A stretch of 64,000 nt of DNA, taken from assembly GCA_963720465.1 (NCBI GenBank), contig OY970393.1, forward strand, positions 1,760,001 to 1,824,000, written 5' to 3'. This document shows positions 4,600 to 47,632 of this stretch, one piece after another. This DNA is from Methanobacteriota archaeon. GTDB taxonomy: Archaea > Halobacteriota > Bog-38 > Methanoflorentales > Methanoflorentaceae. The position numbers and the translations under genes were made by a program. The notes below the pieces were generated by a model, which did no database searches, was not told the DNA's origin, and saw nothing but the letters and a program-made list of their open reading frames with translations. How positions within the stretch are numbered: position 1 is the first letter of the stretch; every line of letters begins with the position of its first letter.

Positions 4600-5108
4600 C
4601 TATCGATCTTCCGACATTGTGGCCACCGTGGCATCGCTCTGCATCTGCAGCGCGCCTGCAAATTGCCGCAGCTTCTCTGTGTACTCCTCATTTTTGACCA
4701 CCGCGGCTCGAAGCGCAAGCACGCTGACGGGAGGCCTCCCGCATAGAGCTTGCATATCGCTAAACAACTTCTTATTCTCGTTGCCCCCCTGCGTGCAAAA
4801 GAATGCGATGCCGTTGAATTTCGACTTGTAGATCGTGATATAGGTCCGCATCGGAGTAGACATCAGGCCGTTCCAGACGGGTGTACCAAGCGTGACCACA
4901 TCGTACAACGCTGATCGTAAATAAGCGGTTCCAGTACCGTCAGCTTGTTTCTAGCTGCGTCTCGCCCAGACCTCAGAAAGCCTAGGGGGCCTGTGCGTTT
5001 CTTGGTGTCGATAAGCTCTTCACTATCGCATTGCAGCAGGTCTGCTAAGGCTCCCCCCACTCTCTTGGTGGTCCCAGTTCTCGAATAAAACACCACTTGT
5101 GGCTTCAC
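4600..5108 (-). pseudogene. Flavodoxin, split by a single frameshift near 4913
   Basis: VVFYSRTGTT in one frame; YDVVTLGTPVW...AFFCTQGG in the next; could also be an assembly error. Confidence 0.75.
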
Positions 5109-5793
5109 AGTGTTTCTTCTGATCAGGTTACGCGAGTACCCGCTTTTAATTTTATGGTTGCTTGCTCGCGAAAGCTGCCATGTGCCGGCTAGGTCCGAAA
5201 AGCGTCGAAAAATGGGGACGCTATTGGGGGGCTCAAGAAGCGTTGAAAATTGAATTAATCGTGCTCAACAGCTTCATACAGCGGATCGAGCATCGCTATC
5301 ACTATACAGTATGAAAGAGTAGGGTTTATGGGTTGCTTTAGTCATACTGTAGTAAGAGCACCCTATTCTTAGGCATCTTTTGGAGTTACAGAGCCTTCCA
5401 CTCAACGGTTCCCATTGTTTCCTGTGCAACGGTCACTTACCTTTGGGCAAGACCAACGCGTTGAAGCGCCTGAATAGCAAAAATGGCAAACCCATAACGG
5501 GGCTTATTTGCGTGATAGTCAGCATGCAGCGTCTTGATCAAATGGGATCCATAAAGGCGTGCGTTGGCATCGCTCGCTGGACAGTTGAGAGACGGCAGTC
5601 GAAATGAAGCTAGAAACTATTTAAAACGACGTCAGAGCGCCCGTCTGAATGTGCTTCCAATGGAGCACTAGCGAGCCTCGCGGCCACGCGTGAAAACGCA
5701 CTGGACGTCGCCCGTTTAGAAAAATAAGAATCTCTGTCCCACAGAAGACCTTCATTTCAAGTCCAAATTTTTAAAAGAAAGTCAAAATGGGAC

Positions 5794-5808
5794 CGAAATC
5801 GTTAAATA
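5794..5808 (+). promoter_or_regulatory. BRE/TATA promoter of candidate sRNA copy 1
   Basis: CGAAATCG-TTAAATA, identical in copy 2 and at the same distance from the hairpin. Confidence 0.65.
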
Positions 5809-5830
5809 TAACGCCTGTAGTGTTTAATGT

Positions 5831-5916
5831 GTCGATGCTGGAGAGCGAGGGCCCGCTGCGTGGCCCTACCTCGAACCGTCTTTTACTCTATGTGGCGGAC
5901 CCCGCTCCGTGTTGAC
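5831..5916 (+). ncRNA. Candidate small hairpin RNA, copy 1
   Basis: Stems GTCGATGC/GTGTTGAC, GAGCG/CGCTC, GGG.CCGC/GCGG.CCC and TGCGTGG/CTATGTG close a loop beginning CCCTACCTC; T-tract at 5939-5944. Confidence 0.6.
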
Positions 5917-5939
5917 CGGTGAAGGTTATGCTTCTCAGT

Positions 5940-6200
5940 TTTTTGCACGGTTCCCATGCCTATGTGGATAGTTATTGGCTTCGTCGTCACTATCGGCTAA
6001 GCGGCGTCGATCATCAGGATATCGTTCTTAACCTCCATTCGAATGCTCGAAATTATGTTACTTGCTGCCTCGACTTGCACTGACTGGGCGTCGCTTTGGG
6101 CTACCTGCAGTGTTCCATGAAGTGTAAAGTCGATACTGGTCGGGGGGGCGACGCTCTTCTTTTCAGTAGTCATAGTCCCTGATTTGTTGCTTGCGCTTGT
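5940..6200 (-). pseudogene. Remnant of a DUF2807 / head GIN domain protein
   Basis: GTLQVAQSDAQSVQVEAASNIISSIRMEVKNDILMI, then a stop, then KPITIHIGM; no intact N-terminus. Confidence 0.5.
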
Positions 6201-6368
6201 TTTGATATGAAGGTAAGCACTAGTGACTGTGCCTACGTTGCTAGCGCTATCGCACAAACTACCTTTATTCTTTCGCGATTGTAGTCCGATTACACCACTA
6301 CCAACTAGCCTATAGGGATTTCGAAAAGGTCAGTTCAGCATAAGGTATATATGTGGTAATATCTTATA

Positions 6369-6423: not shown

Positions 6424-6940
6424 ATGTGGCGGTACTGGACGAAAAGCCAAAAGCAATGGACCAAAGGACAATTCCCAAACATGCCACTCTCCGCCCCTTC
6501 TAAAATGGAGCGTGGCACACTTAAATATGCCCTTTTAATGGCACTCAGAGACCAGCCGCTTCACGGCTACGCCATCATCAAGGCAATAGAAGGAACTTCT
6601 GGGTATCCACCGAGCTCCGGGATCGTTTATCCGACACTCCAGATGCTTGAAGATTAAGGATCCCTCCTAAAGACGCAGCTACAAATCAAAAAGGTGTACA
6701 CACTCACTGAAGACGGGCGTCGCTGCCTTGATGAACACCGTGAAGTGGTCGACCGCATCGAAACGCGAGCGCACACGCCCAGATGGAATTCAATTCCCCG
6801 GTATTGGTTCAAAACTAACAGAGATTGCCCGAGCCATCCTTGCTAATTACCATTACCTTGACGATGACAAGGTGAGCAAGATTGAGGACATTTTGAAAGA
6901 TGCCCGGAAGCACATAGGCCAGATCATTTTTGAGCGCTAG
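6424..6940 (+). pseudogene. PadR-family regulator with nonsense codon (6655) and frameshift
   Basis: LHGYAIIKAIE...PSSGIVYPTLQMLED*G...KKVYTLTEDGR; the C-terminal helix is in another frame. Confidence 0.8.
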
Positions 6941-6999: not shown

Positions 7000-7239
7000 G
7001 TGAACGACTTGTGGATCGATCTCATTGCAGCGCCGTTGCCCCAATGCATCAAATGCAAACATTTGGATCGTGGAACGCTCCAGTGTCCCGCTTTCGGGGA
7101 CACGCCAATACCAGACGACATTCAGCTTAGGCTCAGCGATCACCGCTACCCGTACCCGGGGGACCACGGCGTTCTGTTTGAAGAGAAGCATTCTTCAAGG
7201 CTTTCTGGTGAACATTCGCTGTCTCTGAGAGCTGAATAA
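7000..7239 (+). CDS. Small Cys/His-rich hypothetical protein
   Basis: AAGGTGA SD before GTG; CIKCKH..CPAF..PIPDDI..DHRYPYPGDHGVLFE. Confidence 0.65.
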   Translation: MNDLWIDLIAAPLPQCIKCKHLDRGTLQCPAFGDTPIPDDIQLRLSDHRYPYPGDHGVLFEEKHSSRLSGEHSLSLRAE

Positions 7240-7317
7240 AGCGATCGTCGTCATTTAGTGGCGTCGTTCAGAGGCAACGAGCTTGAGACTCTGCCGAATG
7301 TGGTATGAGCAGTCTTG

Positions 7318-45801: not shown

Positions 45802-46392
45802 TTATAGCCTTCTTACCTCTTCCGCCTTAGGCTTCCGTCGAAACAGTCGCTCCCTCAGTGACCGCTTTTGCGGCTCGTCTTCCGTCTCCGGCAACGGCGG
45901 TTGCACCTCTTCGGCTCCCGCCTCGCTACTGGGGACTGGGGAGGGAGTTGACACAGCAGCCGGCAGCAAGCGCGCAAGCATCTCACTCACGTCTGCCAGT
46001 CGGTCAATGACCTTGCTCGACTCACTTCCGTAGAACCCCGCGATGGTCTCATACCGCTTAATCTCGTCTTCTCGCGCCTGTTTGAAGCTCTCGTACTGCG
46101 CAGTCAGTCGCTCTATCATATCCGTTTTCATGTAGAGGAGCTCATCTTTATGGCGCAGCTCTCGCTCACGTTTTTCAAGCTCGGCCTCGAGGCGCGCCGC
46201 GGTTTCACGCGGCACCATCAGCGTTCCTAGGTCTTCTTCTGCAGTGCCTTCGCTCTCGCGCCCTCCGTCTAAATATGCTTCTAACGCTGCCGCGACGATC
46301 TTGCTTCGGCTACTGTTTTCAGAGCTCGCCTGCTTGTCAGCAGCAGCCAGGAGTTCGTCTGAAATCGCAATAGTGACTTTGTGTAATGGCAT
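45802..46392 (-). CDS. Ribbon-helix-helix (CopG-like) protein with coiled coil
   Basis: KVTIAISDELL...SRSKIV..AL; coiled coil; C-terminal RSLRERLFRR. Confidence 0.75.
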   Translation of the reverse strand: MPLHKVTIAISDELLAAADKQASSENSSRSKIVAAALEAYLDGGRESEGTAEEDLGTLMVPRETAARLEAELEKRERELRHKDELLYMKTDMIERLTAQYESFKQAREDEIKRYETIAGFYGSESSKVIDRLADVSEMLARLLPAAVSTPSPVPSSEAGAEEVQPPLPETEDEPQKRSLRERLFRRKPKAEEVRRL

Positions 46393-46443
46393 GGGACTTA
46401 CCACCTATGACGGCGCAGAACCGAATGCGGCCCTCGCTTCGGC

Positions 46444-47031
46444 TCAGTCACACCATAGTATGAATGCTTCATACTTGAGCATGTCGCCCGCTAACGGGAT
46501 TTTCCACTCAACAGTTTCCACCGTTTCCGGTGCAAGGCGCGCGAGCATCAGCTGAAGAAAAATCAACTTGCGCGCTTCGATGAAAAAAATAATGAATTTT
46601 CGAGCTCTTTCGCGGAACAGGCAGTAGTGGTAGCCGATCTTTTTCAAACGGTCTCTTTGAAGCTCTCTGTTCGCATAGCTCGCTACGTGGCTTGATAGCG
46701 GCAGTCGCAATGCAGCTAGAAACTATTTATAGCAGGTTCAACACTTTTTTTGAAATTCAGTTCTAGTGATAGTTCGAAGCTCCTTAATTTAACCGTGGAG
46801 ACGGGCAGAACGCCGTCCATTTGCAAAAATAGCTATCTTGCCACAACAAAATACCTTTATTTCGAGTCCAGATTTTAAAAAGAAGGATAAAATAGAAACG
46901 AAATCGTTAAATACGATCAGTGCACGGTTTAATGTGTCGATGCAGCAGGAGCCGGGCTTCGCCGCAAGGCCCTACCTCAAAACGCGCTCTTTTCGCTTGG
47001 CGGGCCCGCGCTCCATGTTGGTCGCCACATT
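46444..47031. repeat. Dispersed non-coding element, copy 2
   Basis: Colinear with 5338-5920; 88/120 identities by hand count, no gaps, for 46794-46913 vs 5689-5808. Confidence 0.9.
46931..47031 (+). ncRNA. Candidate small hairpin RNA, copy 2
   Basis: AATGTG/CACATT, CGAT.CAGCA/TGTTGGTCG, GGAGC/GCTCC and CGGGCT.CGCC..AAG/CTTGGCGGGCCCG; loop contains CCCTACCTC; TATA at 46907-46913. Confidence 0.6.
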
Positions 47032-47226: not shown

Positions 47227-47524
47227 ATGAAGGTAATTACAAGCGATGAACTTACAGAGTGGATTGCGCAAGTTTTGAGCAAAGGGGTATGAGGTCTGCC
47301 GCACGAAACTGCTTTCGGACGACAATGATGCCACGAAAGAAATCAGGCGAGAAGGGTGAGCTAAACGTGCGCGATGGTTGTTCGAGATGACGACGTCAGT
47401 CTGGTAGTCGAGAGCGTAGCAAAAGCAGCCCGAACCGGCGAAATGGCGGATGGAAAGATATTCATGCTGCCCGTAGAAGAAGTCGTAATCTTCGCGCAGG
47501 AGAAAAGGGGGAGGCGCACTCTGA
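47227..47524 (+). pseudogene. Degenerate P-II (GlnK/GlnB) nitrogen regulator
   Basis: FGRQ and [37 protein letters not shown], broken by stops and frameshifts. Confidence 0.8.
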
Positions 47525-47632
47525 TTGAGGTTCGCCCATGAATGTACGCGCCTCGGCACGCAATCCGATATGGATCTTCAGATCCTATTTGTTGGGGCGA
47601 GGTCACACAAAACGGCTAATCTGTTTTCGTTG

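Follow-up and report, generated by a model that had tools for sequence, protein, structure and literature searches.

The subject of this study is a non-coding unit that occurs at positions 5338-5920 (copy A) and again at 46444-47031 (copy B) of a 64,000-nt stretch of archaeal DNA, hereafter the window, which corresponds to positions 1760001-1824000 of the single 2.31-Mb contig (C1; 51.7% G+C) of the source genome, G000. We propose that the unit is probably a gene for a structured small RNA (sRNA) of about 95-115 nt, encoded on the + strand, together with a long upstream region. The best-supported part of this proposal is that the hairpin sRNAs constitute a new family of siblings, carried by an uncultured methanogen genus. 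The genome contains mcrA, in line with the methanogen relatives presumed in a preliminary description of this DNA. Judged from the titles of related genome records, the lineage is presumably the family Bog-38, which a preprint equates with Ca. Methanoflorentaceae, or Rice Cluster II, and whose members it characterizes as abundant and obligately hydrogenotrophic methanogens of northern peatlands (10.1101/2025.08.21.671631).

Aligned without gaps at the fixed offset of 41106, copies A and B share 278 of 583 positions, compared to a mean of 145.8 (standard deviation 10.5, maximum 181) at 5000 random offsets; the duplication is thus real, well beyond what chance would produce. Of the ungapped 120-nt blocks, the best holds 89 identities (offset 41105, start 5721), one more than originally counted. 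The near-constant offset reported at the outset was recovered, and a MAFFT alignment requires but few gaps of 1-4 nt within the unit. Similarity ceases sharply at about 5338 and 5925 (copy A coordinates). Both promoter-like boxes that had been quoted are present in the two copies, GAAACTATTTA inside 5612-5624 in A and 46718-46730 in B, and GAAATCGTTAAATA at 5795-5808 and 46900-46913, respectively, and the blocks that hold them are invariant or nearly so among 27 aligned copies. The terminal hairpin was likewise found, at 5829-5917 in copy A and 46935-47027 in copy B, both on the + strand.

The initial observation is therefore real, and it is more extensive than first described: what had been taken for a two-copy feature has further members. 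BLAST and profile searches located a third full copy, C, at about 1833484-1834074 of the same contig, about 10 kb past the window end, as well as three shorter copies restricted to the 3' part, D at 1835785-1835856 (+), E at 1910743-1910841 (-) and F at 7219-7313 (-). When copy B was used as the query, 16 of the 17 genomes of the genus yielded matches, mostly in three places each and spaced as in G000 (in genome G011, for example, the copies lie at 694 kb, 733 kb and 760 kb). Trees of 27 copies, and then of 36 distinct full copies, resolved three clean clades (A with 9, B with 15 and C with 12 members), and therefore the paralogs A, B and C predate the genus, each having afterwards been retained in synteny. 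The paralogs diverge from one another by 40-50%, while each of them stays conserved among species.

To place the hairpin on a firmer footing we turn to its fold. Consensus folds computed in sliding windows, clade by clade and on both strands, gave a strong signal in all three clades at 5810-5929 only, with z scores of -6.4, -5.2 and -4.6 on the + strand and -3.8, -2.2 and -3.3 on the - strand, and independent minimum free energy (MFE) folds of 13 copies of five types returned one and the same long imperfect hairpin. RNAalifold failed on MAFFT alignments that mixed the clades, as these were out of register, and therefore the clade-B structure was written by hand into a covariance model (R1), to which the other clades were realigned, 34 copies giving the model R2 and 62 copies of six types the final alignment. 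Four rows were left out of these sRNA alignments: L019, L020 (which holds an N), L029 (cut by a contig end) and L042 (its sRNA being identical to that of L046). The covariance model matches 5824-5925 in copy A and 46929-47031 in copy B; it recognizes six sRNA copies, A-F, in G000, and one to six per genome in 15 of the 17 genus genomes.

The covariation accords with this fold. Among the 34 sequences, 89.9% of the cells pair, falling to 36-43% once the partner is slid by 1-3 columns, and double changes were found in 23 of the 28 pairs, compared to 10.4±1.7 in shuffled controls (0 of 500 reaching the observed count). Among the 62 sequences of six sibling types, 83.6% of the cells pair (33-41% in the slid controls), with double changes in 24 of 28 pairs against 16.4±1.6 (again 0 of 500). 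Swaps from clade to clade agree with the fold, as does, for example, a change of A-U to G-C inside clade B, and the G-U pairs, which are frequent, fit the + strand only. The hairpin is built of helices P0-P3 and a 3-bp apical stem, with an unpaired pyrimidine loop. One stretch alone, CUACCUC(G/A)AA, is invariant in all types; it is conserved at 90% or above in the 62-sequence alignment and lies unpaired on the 5' side of the apical region (in copy A, CUACCUCGAA at 5866-5875). The 16S rRNA of this organism ends in ...GGATCACCTCCT, and ACCUC is common to the motif and the 16S end. On this basis the exposed motif could pair with purine-rich, Shine-Dalgarno-like stretches of mRNAs; action of the siblings in trans is the likeliest mode, albeit less probable than not. 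Runs of T follow the hairpin, directly in copy C and within about 25 nt in copy A, where the run at 5940-5945 may mark the end of the transcript. A separate idea, that the motif is masked by an upstream UUUCGAG in a long isoform, was dropped due to an uncompensated mismatch in clade B.

The family has no counterpart in Rfam 15. No match at the gathering score was obtained in the 64-kb window; the check proposed for the two original copies gave no usable match, merely two chance-level rows with E values of 5-8, and the C, D, E and F loci gave none at E values up to 1. Two classes of guide RNA were rejected using the box consensus sequences and reading by eye on the 62 sequences: for box C/D, the ends pair as an ordinary helix with G-U and clade B is without a D-like box in the alignment, and for H/ACA, no conserved ACA follows the stem and no snoRNA-type match was seen in Rfam.

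Outside the genus the hairpin was not encountered in the genomes searched. In an order-level sample of 24 genomes, none of the six genomes of the sister genus has an R2 match, and the 26-nt matches seen there were set aside as chance, lying inside a coding gene. When 185,579 species genomes were scanned for the pattern, 31 loci emerged, each in a metagenome bin whose title refers to bogs, fens or peat experiments (SPRUCE among them). A few carry odd labels, two loci lying on one Bathyarchaeia record and one on a record named 'archaeon', and one belongs to isolate bog_38.

Ahead of the hairpin lies a promoter of archaeal type. In copy A, a conserved block (ACCTTCATTTCAAGTCC...) and the proximal promoter occupy 5745-5809 (+), with CGAAA resembling a transcription factor B recognition element (BRE) at 5794-5798 and the TATA box TTAAATAT at 5802-5809; in copy B the equivalent block and proximal BRE/TATA span 46850-46914 (+), with CGAAATCGTTAAATA at 46899-46913. 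The distance to the hairpin is fixed: in A, B, F and most C copies, 23-24 nt separate the end of the TTAAATA box, which has CGAAA ahead of it, from the first paired base, compared to 39 nt in type E and a deviating arrangement in type D. This proximal box resembles the TATA boxes ahead of the tRNA genes of this genome. Accordingly placed, the promoter would start the sRNA at the hairpin foot, 23-24 nt past the BRE/TATA box, a predicted end on a predicted strand.

A second, distal promoter-like block lies at 5593-5626 (+) in copy A (CGGCAGTCGAAATGAAGCTAGAAACTATTTAAAA, with a TATA-like box at 5617-5626) and at 46699-46732 (+) in copy B (TATA-like box at 46723-46732), the box being located about 185 bp above the proximal promoter. 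It is near-invariant in the 27 copies and among their best conserved parts, and boxes similar to it, TATTTAAA, are found upstream of tRNA genes. Between the two promoters lies a middle module (5627-5744 in A and 46733-46849 in B, both +) that is common to A, B and C and weakly to E; its box TTCCAATGGAG (5655-5665 in A) is kept in A, C and E and not in B. Upstream of the distal block extends a conserved, non-coding 5' module, to which no strand was assigned in either copy, at 5338-5592 in A (TTCCACTCAA at 5396-5405, GTTTCCTGTGCAA at 5417-5429) and at 46444-46698 in B (TTCCACTCAA at 46502-46511, GTTTCCGGTGCAA at 46523-46535). Further blocks of copy A include GCTCGC at about 5574 and an A-run at about 5721. 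The architecture throughout is one of short near-invariant blocks with variable spacers of constant length between them.

Module profiles showed that the upstream extent of the siblings is nested. F consists of the core promoter and RNA only; in D, part of the upstream block is present as well, E further includes the middle module, beginning directly after the distal TATA-like box, and A, B and C extend to the 5' module, whose profile matches these three copies alone in G000. The sRNA foreseen at first is thus supported, as one of a family of six, and the long upstream part is limited to three members, a distinction that the preliminary description had missed. Its notion of a platform driving an sRNA fares similarly: a structured small RNA at the 3' end behind an archaeal promoter was found, and the role of the upstream part as a platform would follow only from its conservation and constant spacing.

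The fixed spacing that had been claimed for the two copies is real and holds among orthologues too. In five orthologue groups, gap openings per 100 aligned nt amount to 0.11-0.66 in the element compared to 2.1-2.8 in the right flanks, and indels in the upstream part are 4-20 times fewer than in the flanking spacer. Pairwise identity averages 0.78-0.90 within the element and 0.42-0.79 in the right flanks, and the coding gene left of B, at 0.85-0.92, is close to the element. Conservation is graded along the unit: when the seven B copies closest to one another are compared, the share of variable sites falls from 36% in the 5' module to 30% in the middle module, 16% in the promoter block and 7% in the hairpin. 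The unit is therefore under selection that includes its length, as originally suggested, and it is also non-coding and neither an insertion sequence (IS) nor a gene remnant, as the following tests indicate.

One could imagine that the 5' half is a decayed small protein gene, or a remnant of an IS or a miniature inverted-repeat transposable element (MITE), duplicated along with the sRNA. Copy B of G000 does hold an 88-aa open reading frame (ORF) on the - strand (46444-46710), many copies allow a peptide-like block (..ETxxTVEWK) to be read, and fragments of P-II and DUF2807 genes adjoin copies B and A, respectively. The ORF, however, is open in few orthologues, and stops (TAG included) and frameshifts interrupt it at differing places, those of the peptide-like block on the - strand being species-specific. 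A six-frame comparison confirmed that no ORF is common to the copies, and none is conserved among the orthologues; stops and shifts disrupt the frames in all copies. A 3-base periodicity of the variable sites was absent from all six segments in all seven groups of orthologues (lowest p 0.125). Six of seven ORFs taken from A and B have no Pfam match up to an E value of 1, and the seventh has one at E 0.066 (13.5 bits, under the 27-bit cut-off). The unit is conserved across the genus in the manner of a gene, which is unexpected for a dead one. We also rejected an IS or MITE as such: the unit has no terminal inverted repeats, no transposase family was found among 31 neighbouring ORFs scanned against Pfam (both as stated at the outset), and the copies occupy syntenic positions across genomes, their neighbours being ordinary chromosomal genes and a few fragments. 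The match to an IS remnant or decayed protein gene that would have spoken against the original proposal was found by none of the ORF, periodicity, Pfam and repeat tests, and we consider this origin very improbable.

What, then, does the long upstream part do? Upstream of about 5810, the clade-wise sliding folds gave no consistent consensus RNA structure on either strand, the exceptions being a left-end hairpin in clade B and, in clade A, 5610-5729 (z -3.3). The boxes TTCCACTCAA and GTTTCCTGTGCAA are found together in this genome at copies A, B and C alone. From these two observations, unique co-occurring boxes and the lack of a consensus fold, we infer a control sequence acting at the DNA level plus a 5' extension of the RNA. 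On balance, we slightly favour the view that the ~490 bp are a control region of siblings A, B and C, comprising protein-binding sites and a distal promoter for a 5'-extended isoform. In such an arrangement, the boxes of 10-13 bp, which resemble factor sites and are fixed in spacing, would bind predicted proteins, the distal TATA-like promoter would produce the extended sRNA, and the middle module may be the 5' extension of this longer isoform. An analysis of helical AA/TT periodicity was uninformative, producing many peaks (9, 10 and 12 nt) from copies that are non-independent.

RNA libraries of relatives offer some hints as to transcription. Small shares of the stretch were found in 19 RNA runs, four of which were aligned as Logan contigs of relatives, 85-95% identical to it; the small word shares of the other runs (X5-X19) carry no information on expression or habitat. 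Contigs from four libraries cover 5638-5961, extending to 6053 in one run, and three contigs from two studies start exactly at 5638, with no loose end. The contig of run X1 carries a 378-nt insertion between 5961 and 5962, just past the copy A hairpin. Of the B type, one contig of 407 nt is equivalent to 5319-5725, and another, of 1193 nt, links the 5' module to a neighbouring gene for a protein resembling ribbon-helix-helix (RHH) regulators. No contig covers 5155-5307, 6073-6400 or, in the A type, the part left of 5638 (X1 and X3), and the flanks of the relatives may fall below the 85% threshold. Transcription of the unit is thus hinted at by unstranded contigs.

These contigs bear on another explanation, raised in the preliminary description, namely that a single long non-coding RNA (ncRNA) or precursor spans the unit in its entirety, or at any rate about 5640-5945, with the hairpin as its stable 3' domain and the proximal 'promoter' as a conserved RNA segment. 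The contigs do run unbroken from 5638 over the proximal promoter to 5961 and beyond, the middle module is kept in four of the six sibling types, starting directly after the distal TATA-like box, the + strand has no T-run between 5650 and 5830, and the length is conserved. A long ncRNA nonetheless finds little backing in the folds: no consistent structure emerged upstream of about 5810, clade B having energies of about 0 in most windows and clade A reaching z -3.3 at best, and the 179-nt fold of 5590-5768 varies among copies. A large hairpin closing 5595-5762 via a short inverted repeat appears in some MFE folds and was rejected, its interior being unconserved. Moreover, F and D retain the hairpin and a correctly spaced TATA box in the absence of the upstream parts, and therefore the hairpin is an independent unit. 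Taken together, these data make a single long RNA unlikely.

Several observations weigh against our preferred reading, an sRNA gene with an upstream control region. The RNA contigs reveal neither the strand nor the level nor the true ends of a transcript, and the libraries may contain carried-over DNA. The shared start at 5638 lies only 12 nt past the distal TATA-like box, compared to 23-31 nt from box to mature 5' end in tRNA examples, and therefore misfits a simple start from the distal box; the boundary might reflect an atypical start, processing of the RNA or an antisense RNA whose 3' end lies there. The z scores of single sequences are modest (A, -2.25 on the + versus -1.69 on the - strand; B, -1.96 versus -0.52), and the alignments behind the pair counts, having been fitted to the model, are biased toward structure. 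Two genus genomes, G003 (77% complete) and G016 (61% complete), have no R2 match. The upstream boxes are found nowhere else in the genome, so that no regulon backs a factor site, and a search for exact or near-exact 9-14-mer complements of the exposed motif gave chance-level counts, no placement at start codons and no target.

The left edges of the long copies suggest one candidate for a binding protein. Copy A has a palindrome at its left end, TACAGTATGA / TCATACTGTA, with 10-nt arms at 5305-5314 and 5342-5351 that are 100% complementary (strand unassigned); its GTATGA/TCATAC half-sites recur at the left ends of B and C. The palindrome of copy B, GTATGAATGCTTCATAC (46458-46474, strand unassigned), is near-invariant in the B orthologues and lies 54-70 nt upstream of the divergent RHH-like gene, within its promoter region. 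Three half-sites are present in the copy C orthologues; copy C of G000 itself has a single exact one. The RHH-like gene (45802-46404, -) encodes a 200-aa protein with a weak ribbon-helix-helix N-terminus, matching RHH_1 with an E value of 0.005 and 17.2 bits, under the 20.5-bit cut-off; a homologue in the sister genus matches with E 0.0015 and 18.8 bits and has two GTATGA and two TCATAC within about 170 nt of its gene start. Genome-wide, GTATGA-N-TCATAC pairs occur five times versus about 2.3 expected, two of them at A and B. Judged from these motifs, the arrangement suggests that the RHH-like protein is a candidate binder of the left edges of the three long copies. The ORF-free region upstream of the homologue in the sister genus was searched with profiles, and nothing related to any of the modules turned up.

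Several side observations concern these left edges and the RHH-like gene. One orthologue of the gene (L137, G008:C12:181982-182572) contains a single in-frame TAG, which could reflect a broken gene, a sequencing error or read-through. In the sister-genus genome G018, the region upstream of the RHH-like homologue (L138, 276-1482) comprises about 1.2 kb without an ORF of at least 60 aa; it is A+T-rich, with a number of short direct repeats, and shows no sequence relationship to the unit. In the copy A orthologues of two species (L038/L053 and L040/L067), the profile finds a second, adjacent match to the first ~70-75 nt, which suggests that the left edge was locally duplicated in tandem in those two species.

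Another alternative is that a promoter near 5745-5760 drives leftward transcription of the 5' and middle modules, on the - strand, yielding an ncRNA or, in B, the long 5' leader of the RHH-like gene, and facing the sRNA so as to exert antisense control. BRE-like TCGAAAT occurs on the + strand at 5599-5605 and 5793-5799, and on the - strand at about 5752-5758 in most copies, but not in copy A of G000; the surrounding 9-nt arms pair, as the internal inverted repeat GAAATGAAG/CTTCATTTC at 5601-5609/5750-5758 of copy A, a repeat that is imperfect in copy B of this genome. The B-type contigs, with their equivalent of 5319-5725 and their junction of 5' module and RHH-like gene, the left-edge hairpin, which would fit a 3' end, and a conserved T5-like run on the - strand at about 5721-5727 all agree with such a reading. 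Yet the contigs are strandless, and one contig over two features need not mean one transcript; A and C have no - strand gene directly to their left, the box near 5745-5760 is without the AT-rich TATA of the tRNA-gene type, and no structure signal was obtained on the - strand. We therefore regard leftward transcription as improbable.

A further alternative does away with the RNA altogether, taking the unit as a chromosomal site that acts as DNA, whether in replication origin function, partition or chromatin organisation, with the hairpin as incidental. Boxes of the TTCCA-N-TGGAG type recall origin recognition boxes, and the unit has A/T tracts and a fixed spacing, with several copies inside 70 kb. 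This box, however, is not kept in clade B, and compensatory changes and G-U pairs would be superfluous in a DNA site. A replication origin in particular was rejected: the Cdc6/Orc1 (Cdc6_C) genes, at 1,594,734 and 1,925,039, are not adjacent to A, B and C, from which they lie 170 kb and at least 90 kb away, respectively. A purely chromosomal role thus appears extremely improbable.

The preferred reading, an sRNA gene with a control region, has a more ambitious extension. In this version, the ~490 bp would be a length-constrained control module of a kind undescribed in archaea, either a nucleoprotein platform whose unique boxes have to stay at set distances or facing promoters whose overlapping sense and antisense transcripts set sRNA output, gated at its left edge by the RHH-like protein and coordinating three of the six siblings in a genus that dominates northern peat methane production. 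We put this forward as speculation that stands little chance of being right in full.

Among known systems, the trans-encoded sRNAs of Methanosarcina mazei are the closest archaeal comparison. Similar to these, the present sRNAs are intergenic, have their own BRE/TATA, measure about 100 nt, form a stable hairpin and expose a C/U-rich candidate for pairing with ribosome-binding sites; unlike them, they have no Rfam 15 match, come as six siblings per genome, are confined to one uncultured genus and, on three siblings, are preceded by ~490 bp of conserved, indel-poor DNA. Bacterial sibling sRNA families of the Qrr and LhrC type also consist of paralogous genes that keep one invariant single-stranded motif while their stems drift by compensatory changes, but the promoter type and host here are archaeal and the upstream extents of the siblings are nested. 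The shape of the hairpin, a long G+C-rich helix, an asymmetric internal loop with GAA on the 5' strand, a short apical stem and a small loop, is reminiscent of the archaeal selenocysteine insertion sequence (SECIS) element, from which it differs in lying outside the untranslated region of any gene, in having its own promoter and in its far larger internal loop; the Rfam SECIS models gave no match even at E values up to 10. With MITE and IS remnants the unit shares several copies of a few hundred non-coding bases in one genome, in contrast to which its copies are ancient syntenic paralogs, with neither terminal inverted repeats nor a transposase in the scanned neighbours.

In the literature searched, we found no mention of Methanoflorens together with sRNA or non-coding RNA. 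If our reading is true, this is the first family of RNA regulators defined for this uncultured lineage, and, with the covariance model in hand, expression of the sRNAs could be tracked in existing peat metatranscriptomes. The unusual part is the long indel-poor non-coding region on three siblings, which would pose a concrete problem of archaeal promoter architecture; should it be merely a weakly constrained spacer, the finding shrinks to another lineage-specific sRNA family.

Finally, we note some features of the genes that surround the copies. The neighbours of copy A appear broken in G000 (5997-6257, -; 4600-5108, -; 6424-6940, +): the DUF2807 gene has about 86 aa compared to 246-253 aa at the same place in relatives, and the flavodoxin-like and PadR-like genes are each split into two ORFs, which could be due either to genuine decay or to frameshifts in the assembly. 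A P-II (GlnB-like) remnant (47227-47541, +) follows the copy B hairpin at a distance of about 190 nt; its match to Pfam P-II (E 7.9e-07) is confined to the 40 C-terminal residues, the N-terminal part showing a stop and frame changes by eye. Copy D is located 1.7 kb downstream of copy C, past a small membrane-protein gene and a flavin-reductase-like gene. In the copy C orthologues (L004, L042, L046, L052, L055 and others), the gene for a small, conserved membrane protein (about 105-118 aa, ending in ...IGGVKLELE) always follows the hairpin on the same strand, at a distance of 230-380 nt.

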